From: a virus
Taxonomy: Duplodnaviria > Caudoviricetes
Length of the DNA: 64,000 bases
IMG/VR virus record: IMGVR_UViG_3300021387_000661
Coordinates: 224,001-288,000 of that record
Direction: 5' to 3' (one strand)
The notes below the pieces were generated by a model, which was not told the DNA's origin, did not search any database, and saw nothing but the letters and a program-made list of their open reading frames with translations. Shown piece after piece: positions 10,612 through 19,008 of this stretch (position 1 is the first letter of the stretch; each line of letters opens with the position of its first letter). Position numbers and translations under genes: made by a program.

Positions 10612-11050
10612 CGAACATATATCTGAAGAACTGGCCAGGAAACTTCTTGACTGGGGTTATCCCCTATTAAGTTATGCTCCTGGTACATATGATGGCGCTC
10701 CTTGTTTTGATATTCCAGGACCTGATGAACCTGGTTGGGCAGATGGTGACAGATACCAGATTCCCACATATGGTGAGGTGTTTGACTGGTTCTCAAGGGT
10801 AAAAGGTATTGTCATCACCCTTGAACCATTCCACACTTTTGCATTAAAAGGTCAGATAGGATATACCTGGAAGATAAACTATGTAGACCCTGAATTTGGT
10901 CTTGTATTGAGGACAGAAGAAAATGAATACCAATCAGGAGATGGATTTGGTGGTTCATTTAAACTCACTGCTGACGAAGCGATAAAGTCCGCAATGACTC
11001 TTGGTAAAAAGAAAGAGGAATATATTGAAGTAAACATTGATGAATTATAG
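10598..11050 (+). CDS. Hypothetical protein (paralog of 46132-46599)
   Basis: Shared PTY.EV.DWF motif. Confidence 0.65.
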   Translation: MTNYSEHISEELARKLLDWGYPLLSYAPGTYDGAPCFDIPGPDEPGWADGDRYQIPTYGEVFDWFSRVKGIVITLEPFHTFALKGQIGYTWKINYVDPEFGLVLRTEENEYQSGDGFGGSFKLTADEAIKSAMTLGKKKEEYIEVNIDEL

Positions 11051-11382
11051 TTATGGAAATTATTAAAGACTTGAATCCAGAAACCAGGAAATACAAATTC
11101 ATTCACTGGGGGTGTTGTGAGTTTACAGCCCTTGAAAATGAATTCAAATGGACTGCTGGACAATATAATGAGACAACTGCAAGTGTAGTTTGTCCAAAGT
11201 GTGGGAAACAGTTTTATCAAGATCCAGAAGAGATTAAACCAGAAACACCATCATTTGATGATTGGCCAAAGGTAACAAACTGTCCAAAGAATTGTAAGAT
11301 ATGTCAAGCCAAATGTTTATACAGGAAGGAGAAGTATAATGATTATGTGTCTCCAAAAGATTAATTTTTTTGTTATATTTAA

Positions 11383-11427
11383 TTTACATAAATACTTTAG
11401 AAAGTCAAAAATCAATTTACATAAATA
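11383..11427 (+). promoter_or_regulatory. Tandem TTTACATAAATA boxes (T4-late-promoter-like) ahead of leader 1
   Basis: Two copies here and two at 18651-18687; resembles TATAAATA. Confidence 0.6.
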
Positions 11428-11431
11428 TAGT

Positions 11432-11503
11432 ATGATGACATTAAATAACATATCAAATAGGAAATCCGATTTAAGAAAATTGGATTCTTTTGGTGTGGTA
11501 TAA
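11432..11503 (+). CDS. Leader peptide 1 (MMTLNNISNRKSDLRKLDSFGVV)
   Basis: 23-codon uORF forming a long hairpin; its 3' end is complementary to the downstream terminator arm. Confidence 0.75.
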   Translation: MMTLNNISNRKSDLRKLDSFGVV

Positions 11504-11531
11504 TGTCAATAAGATAACAAGCATATCATCT

Positions 11532-11567
11532 AAAACCACACCTTTGAAAAAAGATGTGGTTTTTTTT
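11532..11567 (+). terminator. Attenuator terminator 1
   Basis: AAAACCACACCTT / AAGATGTGGTTTT stem followed by T-run. Confidence 0.8.
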
Positions 11568-11576
11568 GATAAAATA

Positions 11577-11608
11577 TTTGGAAGTTTAAAAAAAAGTTGT
11601 TATATTTG
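11577..11608 (+). promoter_or_regulatory. Bacteroidota primary-sigma promoter (-33 TTTG, -7 TATATTTG); further copies near 15010, 17255, 19374, 24785, 47308, 50490, 57182, 59480, 62021
   Basis: Matches the Bacteroides TTTG / TAnnTTTG consensus at about 20-nt spacing, always intergenic. Confidence 0.85.
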
Positions 11609-11757
11609 TAGTGTTGAAAGTTCATTAAAATAAAGCCAATCCGCCCAGTCGGAAAAGTAAGATTATGGAAACATCCATGTGGGATGGTTTACGAATCATC
11701 AACACCGTCGATTCGGGACTTCTGAAATAAAAAAGTGGTACTTGACTTAAATTGATT

Positions 11758-11830
11758 GCAACCTTGGCGCAGTGGCTAGCGCAACTGACTTTTAATCAGT
11801 GGGTCTCGGGTTCGAATCCCGAAGGTTGCA
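11758..11830 (+). tRNA. tRNA-Lys(TTT)
   Basis: Cloverleaf; ACTGA ctTTTaa TCAGT. Confidence 0.92.
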
Positions 11831-12027
11831 CACAAAACATAAATTTATTTTGATATTTGAAAAATTTATGTTATATTTGTAATACACGTACCCAGGTTGA
11901 GATAAATTTTGCAAGAATTTATAATATAATTACTGATTCCCTGGGTTTTAAAATCCACAATGGCAGATGCGCACAGTCCCGGAGTGGTTGAGTGAGGAGG
12001 ACTTGCAATAACCTCCAAACAAAAGGA

Positions 12028-12103
12028 AGTCTTGTAGTTTAATGGTAGAATGCCTGCCTCGAAAGCAGGAGATGGATGCAGGGTTCGAATCCCCCCAAGA
12101 CAA
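12028..12103 (+). tRNA. Atypical tRNA, anticodon CGA (Ser-like)
   Basis: CCTGC ctCGAaa GCAGG; GGTTCGAATCC; first pair mismatched, odd variable region. Confidence 0.6.
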
Positions 12104-12127
12104 CAAAGTTAGTTCATTGAAAATATT

Positions 12128-12293
12128 GCCCTGGTGGTGGAATGGTAGACACGAGGGACTTAATTAGCAGAGTAAACTGTCTTAAAAAATCTTGTTTGGA
12201 AAATATAGGAACTTTGACAGGTTCAAATCCTGTTTCCAGACCAATCCCTTGGCCTGCAAGGCCTTGCGGGTTCGACTCCCGCCCGGGGCACCA
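12128..12293 (+). tRNA. tRNA-Leu(TAA) interrupted by 79-nt insert (12164-12242)
   Basis: Leu-type D and variable arms; removing the insert gives AGGGA ctTAAaa TCCCT; encoded CCA. Confidence 0.85.
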
Positions 12294-12355
12294 ACATAGT
12301 TGATTCTGACTGTTGTCAGACTTGAGGTTAATGACAGGACCTTCAACTATTAAAT

Positions 12356-12434
12356 GCGGGTGTATCGCCACTGTCTTATACACAGTCATTAACAGCGTAA
12401 TTGGTGTATGGGGGTTCAAGTCCCTCCACCCGTA
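12356..12434 (+). tRNA. D-armless tRNA-Ile(TAT) with long variable region
   Basis: GCGGGTG/CACCCGT acceptor; ACTGT ctTATac ACAGT; normal T arm. Confidence 0.7.
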
Positions 12435-12629
12435 CAAGCTTATTTGAAACAGCACTGGTACAAGGATCCATACCAGTAAAGATGAGATGGTAGCGCTGAA
12501 GTCTACGAACCTTAACAGGAAGTATCCGGATTCAAACTCCTGTCCTGTGTTACGGAACCAGTCTGGGTCACCAGGGTTTAATTGGGATGGAAACACCCAA
12601 GGAAGAGAAACCACCTTATGCTGTTATAT

Positions 12630-12701
12630 GCTTCCATAGGTCAACGGATAGACTGACTCTCCCCTAAAGAGTAGATACATGTTCAATTCATGTTGGGAGT
12701 A
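12630..12701 (+). tRNA. tRNA-Arg(CCT)
   Basis: ACTCT ccCCTaa AGAGT (C33). Confidence 0.8.
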
Positions 12702-12713
12702 CAAAACATAAAT

Positions 12714-12787
12714 GGCCCCTTAGCTCAGCGGATCAGAGCAACAGCCTTCTAAGCTGTGGGTCCTGCGTTCGAATCGCAGAGGGGTCA
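12714..12787 (+). tRNA. tRNA-Arg(TCT)
   Basis: ACAGC ctTCTaa GCTGT. Confidence 0.92.
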
Positions 12788-12807
12788 CAAAAAAAGTTTA
12801 AAAGATA

Positions 12808-12834
12808 ATGAGACAGTATAAACATAAACAGTAG
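12808..12834 (+). CDS. Leader peptide 3 (MRQYKHKQ) upstream of two tRNA-Lys(TTT)
   Basis: A-rich initiation context, two AAA codons, followed by mutually exclusive helices. Confidence 0.6.
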   Translation: MRQYKHKQ

Positions 12835-12885
12835 TTGTGTTGGTATCATCCAGAAAGATGAGACCAACCAAGTCATATATGGAAA

Positions 12886-12960
12886 GGTCTCGTGGCGCAA
12901 CTGGATGAGCGCACCTGTCTTTTAAACAGGGTGTTATGGGTTCGAGTCCCATCGGGACCA
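12886..12960 (+). tRNA. tRNA-Lys(TTT)
   Basis: CCTGT ctTTTaa ACAGG. Confidence 0.9.
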
Positions 12961-12969
12961 CAAGGTATT

Positions 12970-13042
12970 GGCCTTGTAGCTTAGATGGTAGAGCACCACC
13001 CTTTTAAGGTGGGAGTCGTGGGTTCGAGCCCCACCGGGGTCA
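12970..13042 (+). tRNA. tRNA-Lys(TTT)
   Basis: CCACC ctTTTaa GGTGG. Confidence 0.9.
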
Positions 13043-13267
13043 CAAAGATTAAAGTTTGAAATATATGGGTGGCTTGCATGCAGTTCTTGATAAGTCAGAT
13101 ATAGTACTTACTGATACTGTCTTGAACCAGAGTAAAAAGACCGGTACCTGATTGCAATAAGTTCCCACCCACCCTTTACCTGACAGGTCGAGCGTGATAT
13201 GGTCGCCTGTATTCACCAGACGTGGAGAAGAGACATTGAAACTCTGTCAGGTTTTTAATAGATTATT

Positions 13268-13624
13268 ATGGAAAAGAAACCAAAGATAAAGTGGAAGAAT
13301 TTTAAAATCTGGATCAAAGACCAGTTCAAGAGGAAGACCTGGTTCAGAAACTTTTTCATCACTGGGAATGCCTGGGGAGGGTTCAGTATCAACTCTCACA
13401 TCAACCAACATACAGGTGAACCAAAGATAACATACAATCATCTTGAATCCGCCCAGAAGGCTGCTGACAAGATGGGACAGAAACACAACACACACTTCAG
13501 TGTTTACAAGTGTCTTTACTGTGATGGTTATCATATTGGAAAGAACAGGGAGAACAAGACAGATTATGACAAGAAGGTAGTTACAAATGTTGAAGTAAAA
13601 GACAAGACTTTAATACTTAAATAA
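13268..13624 (+). CDS. Hypothetical basic protein with YKCxxCxGYHIG zinc motif
   Basis: ORF translation. Confidence 0.7.
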   Translation: MEKKPKIKWKNFKIWIKDQFKRKTWFRNFFITGNAWGGFSINSHINQHTGEPKITYNHLESAQKAADKMGQKHNTHFSVYKCLYCDGYHIGKNRENKTDYDKKVVTNVEVKDKTLILK

Positions 13625-13625
13625 G

Positions 13626-14078
13626 ATGAACACACTTGAAAATACAATTCAGAAGGATCTGGTTCAGGCAATGAAGAACCATCAGGAACACACTGTTGCA
13701 GCATTGAGGTCTGTTAAGACTGCCATTATGGAAGTGAAGACCGCTGCCAATGGTAAGAAGGATTTGGAAGATGGTGACATTGTGAAGATCATCCAGAAGT
13801 TAGTTAAGCAAAGGAAGGAGAGTATGGACATCTATTCCCAGGCAGGTAGGCATGAACTTGCAGACAATGAGCAGCAGGAGATGTTTGTGTTGATGAACTA
13901 TCTTCCAAAGATGCTCACTGAATCAGAGGTGGAGGAAATTGTTGTGAAGACGATCGCAGACCTTGGTGCAACCTCAATGAAAGATATGGGAAAGGTGATG
14001 GGATTCATCAATAAGACTTATGCTGGACAGGTGGATGGTTCTATGGTATCAAGAATTGTTAAATCTAAATTAGGATAA
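13626..14078 (+). CDS. yqeY: GatB/YqeY domain protein
   Basis: AMK..LRSVK, KLVKQRKES..Y..AGR.ELA..E, YLPK, DMGKVMG. Confidence 0.9.
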   Translation: MNTLENTIQKDLVQAMKNHQEHTVAALRSVKTAIMEVKTAANGKKDLEDGDIVKIIQKLVKQRKESMDIYSQAGRHELADNEQQEMFVLMNYLPKMLTESEVEEIVVKTIADLGATSMKDMGKVMGFINKTYAGQVDGSMVSRIVKSKLG

Positions 14079-14491
14079 TATGGCAAAGTTTGTTGTTTAT
14101 GCTCATGACAAGACTGATGTAGAATCAAATCTCATCTATGTATGTACCTGTGACACCAAAAATATGGCAAAGAGTATTACAAGTGCTATGAGGTTCAGGG
14201 ATTCCGGTGGAAGGAATGATGGGTCGGGTTTATATGATTATTATGTTAGAAAAGAAGATTGGATAGTATGAAAACCTGGATTATAGTTTTAGCAATTGTA
14301 TTTGTTGTTTTAAAGTTAGTTCAGCGGTTTCTTGCAAACTATATCAGAAATGACAGATTGGAAAGTGTAAAATACTACTTTCTTGATGGTGCAACAACAC
14401 TTGGGGTGATACATGGACTTGTTTCTTTATTTTGTATATTGGTTGGTTGTACAGATTTGATTTTATTGTTTATTTATTTGTTGAATTTAGT

Positions 14492-14983
14492 ATGAAGAAT
14501 ATAGCATTGGTTGCCCATGATGGAAGAAAGAAAGAATTGATGGAGTGGGTAAGGTATAATTGGGAAACTCTTTCAAAGCATAATTTATATGCAACTGGTA
14601 CAACTGGAAAATTGATTAGTGGTATTGAAGTGGATCTTGGATTTGGTGGTGGAGAAGGAGTTTATAGGAGACAGATTGAGTATCCTTTGAGGAGTAAAGT
14701 AACATGTCTCAAATCTGGTCCACTTGGTGGAGATCAACAGATTGGAGCAATGATTGCAGAAGGAAAGATAGATGTATTGATATTTTTCTGTGACAATCTC
14801 ATTACACAAGGTCACCAGACAGATGTGTCTGCACTTACCAGACTTGCATCACTTTATAATATTGCATTTGCAACAAACAGGACAACTGCTGATATGATTC
14901 TTACATCACCATTGTTCAATGATGAAAATTATAAGATGATTGTTCCTGATGTGATTGAGAAATATAAAAACAGACAAATTTAA
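14492..14983 (+). CDS. mgsA: Methylglyoxal synthase
   Basis: IALVAHD, ATGTTG, SGPLGGDQQIG, H.TDV.AL.R, ATN.TAD. Confidence 0.95.
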   Translation: MKNIALVAHDGRKKELMEWVRYNWETLSKHNLYATGTTGKLISGIEVDLGFGGGEGVYRRQIEYPLRSKVTCLKSGPLGGDQQIGAMIAEGKIDVLIFFCDNLITQGHQTDVSALTRLASLYNIAFATNRTTADMILTSPLFNDENYKMIVPDVIEKYKNRQI

Positions 14984-15083
14984 TAAAAACATAAATATTT
15001 TTATCTGGGATTTGGAAAATAAAATATTTTTTGTTATATTTGTATTGTTATTCAGAAAGAGTTCTTTGAATTTAGAAATATAT

Positions 15084-15420
15084 AGGTCTTGTTGATGCTT
15101 TCAGGAAAGACTGTAGGACAAGGGTTCGAGTCCCTTCAGGTCCACAAATAAACACACTTAAGTCATCGGAGTACGCCTCTGTAATGATTGAGGAATTCAC
15201 TAAACGGTGTGGAAAATCAGGTTGAGTAGGCTTCGTATCTCAACCAACTTTGGGCCTGCCTGGTTTTGACTGCTTTTGAGTATGGAGAGTGGAGAGGTCT
15301 ATTGCCAATAACTGGCAAAAACAACGGTTTCTCTGTAAACTTTGGCCCTGTCGCACAGACAGCTACTCCAAAGGCTATGGTTGCTTTCGCTTAATTGCAG
15401 GCTTGAACATAGTAGATCTT
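15084..15420 (+). ncRNA. ssrA: Circularly permuted (two-piece) tmRNA; tag frame 15314-15394
   Basis: T-arm/acceptor 3' strand (GGAC..GGGTTCGAGTCCC..CAGGTCCA, ends 15144) precedes the 5' strand GGGCCTG..TTTTGAC (15252); G3.U70; resume context ATAACT-GGC; outer ends approximate. Confidence 0.85.
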
Positions 15421-15505
15421 TCACCAGGTGGATGATCCAGAGGGTTTCTCATTCCATCTTTCCAAATAAGATGGATACTTTGAAAGTTCTTTATAATAAA
15501 TATTT

Positions 15506-15681
15506 GGCCAGGTAGCTCAGCTGGTTTAGAGCAGCGGACTGTATAAGGAGTGGTTTACCGAAACAAACCAATCTGGTATAGTTTAATGGCAAAATGCCTC
15601 GGGTCGTAGATGATGGTGGTTCGATTCCACCTACCAGATCTAATCCGCGGGTCGTGGGTTCGAGTCCCTCCCTGGCCGCCA
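15506..15681 (+). tRNA. tRNA-Asn(GTT) interrupted by 98-nt insert (15543-15640) containing a tRNA-like fold
   Basis: Removing the insert gives GCGGA ctGTTaa TCCGC; G73; CCA. Confidence 0.85.
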
Positions 15682-15683
15682 AA

Positions 15684-15763
15684 GTACATAGGATGTAAGT
15701 GCACACATATGTTGGGTTCGGGTATGATTAACCCACAGAGGTTTGAGTCCTCTCTATGTACCA
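15684..15763 (+). ncRNA. tRNA-like RNA without a canonical anticodon loop
   Basis: GTACATAG/CTATGTAC stem, T-arm AGAGG tttgagt CCTCT. Confidence 0.5.
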
Positions 15764-15800
15764 AATATAAGTTCTTTGAAAAATAAAAACTTCATACAAT

Positions 15801-16071
15801 GGAGGAGTGGGAGAGTGGTTTATTCCAGCGGTCTTGTTAATTCGAGTGCTTCCAGAGGAATCTGGAAAGTAGAATTCCCCTAATTCGGTGGAACCTTAAC
15901 AGGTAATGCTGATGGTAATACCGAGCCAATGTTTAAAGACAGTGTGTAGAGACTTTACAGGGAACATCCAGAACGGATGAAGATAAAGTCCAGACCACAA
16001 TATGAAAGTAATGTGTGTAAGGAAAACCGCCGCTCCGAAAGGGGCCGTCGGTTCGAATCCGGCCTCCTCCG
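15801..16071 (+). tRNA. tRNA-Ser(TGA) with group I intron
   Basis: Spliced loop GCGGT ctTGAaa ACCGC; long variable arm; G73. Confidence 0.88.
15836..16021 (+). mobile_element. Group I intron (IC3-like, ORF-less, 186 nt)
   Basis: 5' exon ends in U, intron ends in G; P/Q/R/S-like AATTCGGTGGAAC, AATACCGAGC, GTAGAGACT, AAGATAAAGTCC. Confidence 0.88.
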
Positions 16072-18883: not shown

Positions 18884-18923
18884 ATCTCACACAAATCACA
18901 AAAAGGTTTATGTGAGATTTTTT
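18884..18923 (+). terminator. Attenuator terminator 2
   Basis: ATCTCACA...TGTGAGAT stem plus T-run, 10 nt before tRNA-Pro. Confidence 0.78.
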
Positions 18924-18932
18924 AATTTATAT

Positions 18933-19008
18933 TGGGTAGTGCGGTAGTTGGTCACCGGCTGCATTTGGGATGCAGACATTCACGCAGGTTCGAGTCCTGT
19001 CTACCCAA
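18933..19008 (+). tRNA. tRNA-Pro(TGG)
   Basis: CTGCA ttTGGga TGCAG. Confidence 0.88.

Follow-up and report, generated by a model that had tools for sequence, protein, structure and literature searches.

Why should a phage transfer RNA (tRNA) gene be preceded by a very short reading frame that contains the codon the tRNA reads? The question arises at a tRNA-Lys(UUU) gene in a 64,000-nucleotide (nt) stretch of DNA, hereafter the window, which comprises positions 224001-288000 of a 344,746-bp uncultured phage record (IMGVR_UViG_3300021387_000661). In front of this gene lie an eight-codon open reading frame (the mini-ORF) and a hairpin, one arm of which is complementary to the 5' end of the tRNA itself. 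We use "module" for the mini-ORF, the hairpin and the tRNA gene taken together. As judged from sequence, the module is present in the giant phage of the window and in at least 16 other independent phage lineages, and we propose that it is probably a leader-peptide attenuator in which the acceptor stem of a tRNA serves as the last helix.

The window has a G+C content of about 35% and carries 34 tRNA genes and a permuted transfer-messenger RNA (tmRNA), as called by ARAGORN. The parts of the module are listed in Table 1. The mini-ORF has eight codons, two of which, the AAA codons at 12820-12822 and 12826-12828, would be the sensing codons, and its stop codon begins 54 nt upstream of the tRNA-Lys start. 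The hairpin that follows consists of 11 pairs and one A.G mismatch. Inside its 3' arm, the anti-acceptor segment ATGAGACC (12858-12865) matches tRNA nucleotides 1-8 (GGTCTCGT) through 7 Watson-Crick pairs and 1 G.U pair. Within it, GAGACC (12860-12865) is complementary at every base to GGTCTC (12886-12891), with which the tRNA begins. CCA at 12868-12870 and TGG at 12880-12882 are present as well. An earlier reading made from the letters of this DNA without database searches (the sequence-only reading) had described the frame MRQYKHKQ with its TAG stop and two AAA codons, a hairpin after the stop, an alternative pairing of GAGACC with GGTCTC and of CCA with TGG, and the absence of a terminator. 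All of these descriptions hold; the alternative pairing extends to tRNA nucleotides 1-8, and no terminator-like site was found in 12700-13100. The tRNA-Lys gene scores 65.3 bits with RF00005, for which the gathering score is 29, and tRNAs are the only Rfam matches in the module. The whole element is self-contained and spans about 80 nt. SD-like (Shine-Dalgarno) motifs occur at only 9 of 172 long ORFs of the window phage, which is below the frequency in random windows of its genome. Translation in this phage therefore appears to start mostly without an SD sequence, and the missing SD sequence at the mini-ORF is normal for the genome.

Taken by itself, the complementarity at the window locus is not beyond chance, and its significance therefore comes only from the comparison with other phages, whose loci carry labels such as L002 and L095. 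A pattern describing the ORF motif alone gave 42 viral matches, 3 of which have a tRNA-Lys(UUU) no more than 100 nt downstream. A second pattern, which did not call for an ATG, combined AAACANAAACAG with a UUU anticodon loop and a T-loop at a fixed spacing. It matched 7 viral, 37 metagenome and 11 bacterial sequences; modules account for 5 of the viral and 23 of the metagenome matches, which makes 28 loci besides the window, with mini-ORFs of the form M-x-K-[Q/H]-K-Q-stop. Every viral or metagenome match with a real tRNA-Lys(UUU) has an in-frame ATG a few codons upstream, the sole exception lying at a contig end. None of the 11 matches in bacterial genomes is a module, and the three tRNA-Lys genes among them have no mini-ORF. 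Apart from these and the contig-end case, the non-module matches are chance matches that lack a tRNA. The stop of the mini-ORF lies 28-57 nt before the tRNA, with two exceptions (L078 and L109) in which the frame runs into the tRNA. We counted versions as independent only where the hairpin or the acceptor stem differs, and the resulting 17 versions are a lower bound on the number of lineages.

The leader peptides of these loci include MKQIKQKQKQV, MKQSKHKQT, MKYKHKHKQ, MGTKLKHKQM and MKYKQKQKFKRL. Relatives of the window locus were also reached through the neighboring gene for a 118-residue protein, which led to 11 viral loci. One of these, L003, carries a module elsewhere in its tRNA array, consisting of ATG ACA CAG ATG CTT AAA CAG AAA CAG GTA TAG, a hairpin and a tRNA-Lys(UUU); the homologue of the second tRNA-Lys of the window is the leader-bearing copy in L003 and in L104-L106. 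Exact and degenerate patterns built on the window's own tRNA-Lys and hairpin found no match in the viral contigs searched, among which records close to the window may be lacking. In the comparison with cultured phages, the tRNA of L121 matched only the suppressor tRNA(CUA) of the Lak phage.

Several observations indicate that the hairpin arm is matched to the tRNA that follows it. A hairpin of about -8 to -17 kcal/mol begins at, over or just after the stop codon in all 17 versions, and the acceptor stems of their tRNAs differ widely (GGTCTCG, GGCCTTG, GGGGGCA, GCATTCG, GGCTCCG, TGGGTGC, TGCCCTC and others). The duplex between the leader and tRNA nucleotides 1-9 has a mean energy of -10.93 kcal/mol for the cognate combinations and -7.11 kcal/mol when leaders and tRNAs are swapped. 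The cognate mean was reached in none of 200,000 permutations (p <= 5e-6), and an ungapped in-register count, in which 10 of the 17 versions form 8 of 8 canonical pairs, gave the same permutation result. The sequence-only reading had named, as a check on its proposal, that GAGACC should covary in homologs with the 5' strand of the tRNA, and the outcome of this check is positive. In 15 of the 17 versions it is the 3' arm of the hairpin that provides the complementarity, and each tRNA position is represented by 3 to 6 different canonical pair types across versions. We ranked every distinct tRNA context in the retrieved DNA, 353 in total, by the strength of its leader-to-acceptor duplex, and Lys modules take up almost the entire top of the ranking.

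The history of the arm points the same way. L095 and the window share a tRNA 5' strand but have unrelated hairpins, and that of L095 is still complementary to the strand; the same is true of L058 when compared with L122. Close relatives of the window differ in the 5' arm and the loop and all have an identical 3' arm, as would be predicted for a segment that has two partners to pair with. The arm is identical to the tRNA's own 3' strand at 79 of 119 positions. At 31 of the 40 positions where the two differ, the arm can still pair with the 5' strand. Because random change would keep pairing at most one third of the time, this argues for selection on the pairing and not for recent copying. No member has a U-tract after the hairpin, which rules out the hairpin as an intrinsic terminator.

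Signs of translation accompany these signs of pairing. Across the family the mini-ORF keeps its ATG, its in-frame AAA codons and a stop that adjoins the hairpin. There are 2-5 AAA codons per leader, and the family total is 74 AAA versus 5 AAG, with 48 of the 74 forced by the search pattern; the genome of the window uses AAA and AAG at 53:47. TAG and TAA stops interchange in close relatives of the window. An SD sequence precedes the leader at loci whose genes use SD sequences (L058, L078, L109 and L125) and is absent in SD-poor loci such as the window. A pairing of the AAACAG repeat with the anticodon arm was also weighed for the window, and by inspection it is not conserved in other members.

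An isoleucine counterpart surfaced in the screen of the 353 contexts, although no pattern for isoleucine had been used to retrieve it. Of nine tRNA-Ile(UAU) contexts with a mini-ORF, six have one of the form M..(L/F/I)II(Q/R)IG-stop with 2-3 ATA codons; the peptides include MVQTLIIQIG, MLGKFIIRIG and MTMNLIIRIR, each ending at a stop. The distance from that stop to the tRNA is 33-38 nt. A hairpin follows the stop, with a 3' arm complementary to the 5' strand of that tRNA-Ile, and there are two different tRNA-Ile(UAU) acceptor types with two matching arms. At a threshold of at least two cognate codons, no other tRNA type had more than one such context; tRNA-Met was set aside, as its ATG start itself counts as a cognate codon. 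This switch of codons along with the tRNA is the strongest evidence that ribosomes read these frames. The Ile type was seen only in a rumen-type clade related to the window. A broad search for it was swamped by an unrelated conserved C-terminus of a small protein, and a narrower pattern gave only 2 chance matches. Since neither search added a locus, the Ile type rests on 6 loci of that one clade.

Two other sets of tRNA-Ile(UAU) sequences were encountered. The window itself has a weak tRNA match at 12356-12434 (+; 31.7 bits, CTTATAC loop) that resembles tRNA-Ile(UAU) and is not called by ARAGORN; it lacks an ATA-rich leader, whereas the tRNA-Ile(UAU) genes of L093 and L103, both close relatives, have one. 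In the viral contigs L131-L250 (for example L149, L159 and L199), an in-frame ORF ends 3-20 nt before tRNA-Ile(UAU) in 90 of 120 pattern matches. Nearly all of these ORFs end in ...PADD(E/D)LIRIHTELNNEA(Q/P/S)-stop and have two ATA codons (I-R-I), and there is no hairpin between their stop and the tRNA.

These observations can be joined in the following scheme. Four RNA segments would form two mutually exclusive sets of pairings: the two hairpin arms (regions 1 and 2), tRNA nucleotides 1-8 (region 3) and the 3' acceptor strand (region 4). A ribosome would translate the eight-codon frame while the RNA is being made. If the AAA codons are decoded fast, it would arrive at the stop codon and sit on region 1, leaving region 2 to capture region 3 as it emerges; the 2:3 pairing would block the acceptor stem, and the precursor would stay unmatured or be lost. 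If lysyl-tRNA(UUU) is scarce, the ribosome would pause at AAA, upstream of region 1, and the 1:2 hairpin would form. Region 3 would then be free for region 4, and the tRNA would fold and be processed. The outcome would be an on-demand supply of the phage's own tRNA-Lys. Gating of tRNA-Lys in this sense had been suggested by the sequence-only reading. It is supported by the covariation, by the kept ORF, by the codon switch and by the geometry and folds described below, and from these we infer translation of the frame, the block of maturation by the 2:3 pairing and the direction of control. The two loci in which the ORF runs into the tRNA (L078 and L109) fit a logic in which translation acts as the repressor.

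The positions of the parts are consistent with such a switch. On the assumption that a ribosome holds 6-9 nt past its A-site codon single-stranded, a terminating ribosome covers 67-88% of the 5'-arm pairs, and a ribosome with the last AAA in its A site covers 15-27%. The mean energy of the 1:2 pairing is -14.1 kcal/mol, compared with -11.7 kcal/mol for the 2:3 pairing when computed with region 1 removed. We folded the nascent window transcript up to tRNA nucleotide 15. When the transcript is free or the ribosome is stalled at AAA, the 1:2 hairpin forms; when the ribosome is at the stop codon, the 2:3 pairing forms.

The start of the mini-ORF shows one further similarity to the arm. Its first seven bases (12808-12814, ATGAGAC) repeat the anti-acceptor sequence of the hairpin 3' arm, and in an unconstrained fold they pair with the tRNA 5' strand. 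This repeat is common to L093 and L103 and is not found in other groups.

Table 1. Positions of the parts of the tRNA-Lys module and its neighbors in the window, and of the isoleucine counterpart in other loci
Feature	Position	Strand	Basis or remark
tRNA-Arg(UCU), upstream neighbor	12714..12788	+	ARAGORN; Rfam RF00005, 65.1 bits; 3' end 19 nt before mini-ORF start
A-rich unstructured 19-nt stretch before ATG, without Shine-Dalgarno sequence	12789..12807	+	sequence
Mini-ORF ATG AGA CAG TAT AAA CAT AAA CAG TAG (MRQYKHKQ-stop)	12808..12834	+	sequence; stop TAG 12832-12834
Region 1, hairpin 5' arm GTTGGTATCATC	12839..12850	+	first arm base 4 nt after stop codon
Hairpin loop CAGAAA	12851-12856	+	sequence
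Region 2, hairpin 3' arm GATGAGACCAAC	12857..12868	+	pairs with region 1 or tRNA nucleotides 1-8
Region 3, tRNA-Lys nucleotides 1-8 (GGTCTCGT): 5' acceptor strand and U8	12886..12893	+	ARAGORN
tRNA-Lys(UUU), putatively gated gene	12886..12961	+	ARAGORN Lys(ttt); Rfam RF00005; anticodon 12921-12923
Region 4, 3' acceptor strand CGGGACC, normal partner of region 3	12953..12959	+	cloverleaf of ARAGORN call
Second tRNA-Lys(UUU), 8 nt downstream, without its own leader	12970..13043	+	ARAGORN
Ile module	L002:4235-4372; tRNA-Ile(UAU) at L105:3322, L106:4535, L104:634, L103:2881, L093:3804		ARAGORN

Some results are unremarkable at the window locus alone, and others weigh against attenuation by a leader peptide. 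At the window locus, the module spacer folds at -16.9 kcal/mol (z = -2.97; 1 of 200 shuffles equally stable), and two other tRNA spacers of the window, with z = -2.7 and -3.3, are comparable. A 6-mer complementary to a tRNA's own first six bases is found within 60 nt upstream in 1 of the 34 window tRNAs, where about 0.46 would be expected. The complementarity is weak in 3 of the 17 versions (L034, L097 and L100), and the likeness of the peptides among members is partly imposed by the search patterns. L002 and L003, the nearest large relatives, have a similar tRNA array but lack the two tRNA-Lys genes and the leader at the position they occupy in the window, so that the module appears to be gained and lost easily. 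Among cultured phages, BLAST searches with the window region and three modules gave no match covering the leader, and the tRNA-Lys of T5 has no module and is preceded by an unrelated 55-codon ORF. Minimum-free-energy folds of the full-length precursor miss the cloverleaf entirely; thermodynamic modelling of the complete precursor is therefore unreliable, and we set these folds aside. Lastly, the 1:2 hairpin could re-form by strand exchange after the ribosome departs, and repression would then last only with further rounds of translation or quick loss of the misfolded precursor.

Several alternatives to attenuation were weighed. The hairpin could be an element of processing or stability, a minihelix that directs cleavage by RNase P, E or III or protects a 3' end, in which case translation would modulate cleavage between the mini-mRNA and the tRNA and not the folding of the tRNA. 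The likeness between hairpin and acceptor stem (identity at 79 of 119 arm positions, as given above) speaks for this, as do the CAA-type trailers that follow the hairpin in several members, like those after tRNAs, and the location of the hairpin 1-20 nt before the RNase P site in all versions but one. We know of none of these three nucleases that reads the acceptor sequence, however, so that an arm which follows the sequence of each tRNA is left unexplained, and there would be no reason why the 5' strand can still be paired at 31 of the 40 positions at which arm and tRNA 3' strand differ. We consider this explanation unlikely. Less likely still is that the hairpin is incidental and that the mini-ORF either couples translation to transcription against Rho within the tRNA array or lets Rho terminate when the ribosome stalls. 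The leader is C-containing and G-poor (AAACAGAAACAG) and an intrinsic terminator is absent, as such a role would have it, but Rho typically needs a much longer unstructured stretch for loading, the co-varying anti-acceptor arm is again not accounted for, and the logic would cut the output of tRNA-Lys exactly when this tRNA is scarce.

The window hairpin, with 12 stacked positions and a 6-nt loop, comes near to a minihelix of 7 + 5 positions and a 7-nt loop, and tRNA arrays here are often rearranged; the hairpin might thus be the relic of a partly deleted upstream tRNA-Lys, an acceptor/T-arm minihelix, and the ORF an AT-rich by-product. A relic would decay, yet the feature is kept in at least 17 lineages with different acceptor stems, unrelated hairpins stand before the same tRNA (L095 and the window; L058 and L122), and the start codon, frame, AAA codons and stop of the ORF all persist, with ATA codons instead in front of tRNA-Ile(UAU). 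We regard a relic as very improbable. A chance combination of an ATG, two AAA triplets, a hairpin and a 6-mer complement in an AT-rich spacer would be compatible with the counts and fold scores at the window locus, and AAA is the commonest codon of this genome (46 per 1000). The recurrence of the module, the co-variation and the switch of codon with tRNA identity speak against coincidence so strongly that we give it hardly any credence. Whatever weight lies beyond these readings belongs to other functions.

Attenuation at the tRNA-Lys gene can be compared with several known systems. The trpL, hisL, leuL, thrL and pheL attenuators have a short leader ORF and mutually exclusive helices 1:2, 2:3 and 3:4, and slow decoding turns their output on. 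The module resembles the trpL/hisL type in having a short ORF that is enriched in the sensed codon and predicted to be translated, and in having a stop codon next to the first of the exclusive helices, so that the position of the ribosome would choose the fold. It differs in that helix 3:4 is the acceptor stem of a tRNA and not a GC hairpin with a U-tract terminator, and the output would be tRNA folding or maturation instead of transcription termination. No amino-acid or aminoacyl-tRNA synthetase operon follows the module, but rather two tRNA-Lys(UUU) genes; the tRNA that would be regulated is the one decoding the sensed codon, closing the loop directly on the tRNA, and the whole is carried by a phage.

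In the ermC and cat leaders, a ribosome stalled by a drug remodels a hairpin that hides the ribosome-binding site of a protein gene. The module is similar in that a stall in the leader ORF would remodel a downstream hairpin, with no terminator and with control after transcription. It is different in that a tRNA strand is hidden and the stall would come from codon supply; because a tRNA gene, and not a ribosome-binding site or ORF start, follows the hairpin, the module is not an ermC-type switch. T-box riboswitches (RF00230) likewise sense the supply of one tRNA through alternative RNA helices. Unlike the module, they bind uncharged tRNA directly, through a specifier codon and the T-box bulge and without a ribosome, and their targets are amino-acid genes and genes for aminoacyl-tRNA synthetases. 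An Rfam scan of 11000-16000 gave no T-box match at E <= 1. Full-text searches of the literature turned up no account of a tRNA gene controlled by a leader peptide.

If the proposed attenuation is real, ribosome-mediated attenuation would gain a new output, the folding of a tRNA instead of the termination of a transcript. To our knowledge, it would be the first known case of a tRNA gene controlled by the decoding of its own codon. Phage tRNA genes, so far treated as constitutive cargo, would thereby gain a regulatory logic. Lysine is a suggestive case: the AriB nuclease of PARIS cleaves host tRNA-Lys and the tRNA-Lys of T5 rescues infection (PMC11464382), and PrrC cleaves tRNA-Lys(UUU) (PMC10264068). 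The module has in common with these counter-measures that the phage carries a tRNA-Lys of the same species, whereas the two papers describe no regulation of phage tRNA (PMC11464382; PMC10264068). Because PARIS AriB and PrrC cleave host tRNA-Lys, a phage tRNA-Lys induced by stalling is an attractive idea, one that would tie the regulation of phage tRNA to defences that target tRNA-Lys and to which phage tRNA-Lys is a known antidote (PMC11464382).

The Lys and Ile modules together might even belong to a phage class of single-tRNA "demand sensors", an extension that we find possible but doubtful. In each such sensor, a handful of codons for a single tRNA would precede a hairpin able to trap the acceptor strand of that tRNA. 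The Lys form would serve as a defence alarm, in which destruction of tRNA-Lys(UUU) by PrrC or PARIS AriB would cause stalls at AAA and a burst of phage tRNA-Lys. The Ile form would tune the supply of the tRNA that decodes AUA; AT-rich phages need this tRNA, and hosts produce little of it.

A few other features of these loci may be recorded. In T5 (L253:1163-1408; NC_005859 32162-32407, minus strand), tRNA-Lys(UUU) begins immediately after the stop codon of ORF T5.065, which has 55 codons; the end of this ORF is not Lys-rich and no hairpin follows its stop. In the window, a non-coding stretch of about 200 nt (13060-13267, +) separates the second tRNA-Lys from the ORF at 13268. It is about 95% identical to L002 though the flanking tRNA set differs, it has no Rfam match and its fold z is only -0.83; it may be a conserved 5' leader of the gene for the 118-residue protein. 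Rfam tRNA matches at 12128-12290 and 15506-15678 (+) span 163 and 173 nt and would therefore represent tRNA genes with long inserts. The tRNA-Pro at 18933 is preceded, 8 nt upstream, by the end of a hairpin with a run of six T (18884-18924, +; ATCTCACA...TGTGAGAT), which looks like a terminator placed directly before a tRNA block. Beside the tRNA array lie genes for a YqeY-like protein (13626-14078, +; PF09424, E = 2e-46) and a protein with an MGS-like domain (14432-14983, +), followed by the permuted tmRNA (15053-15485, +).

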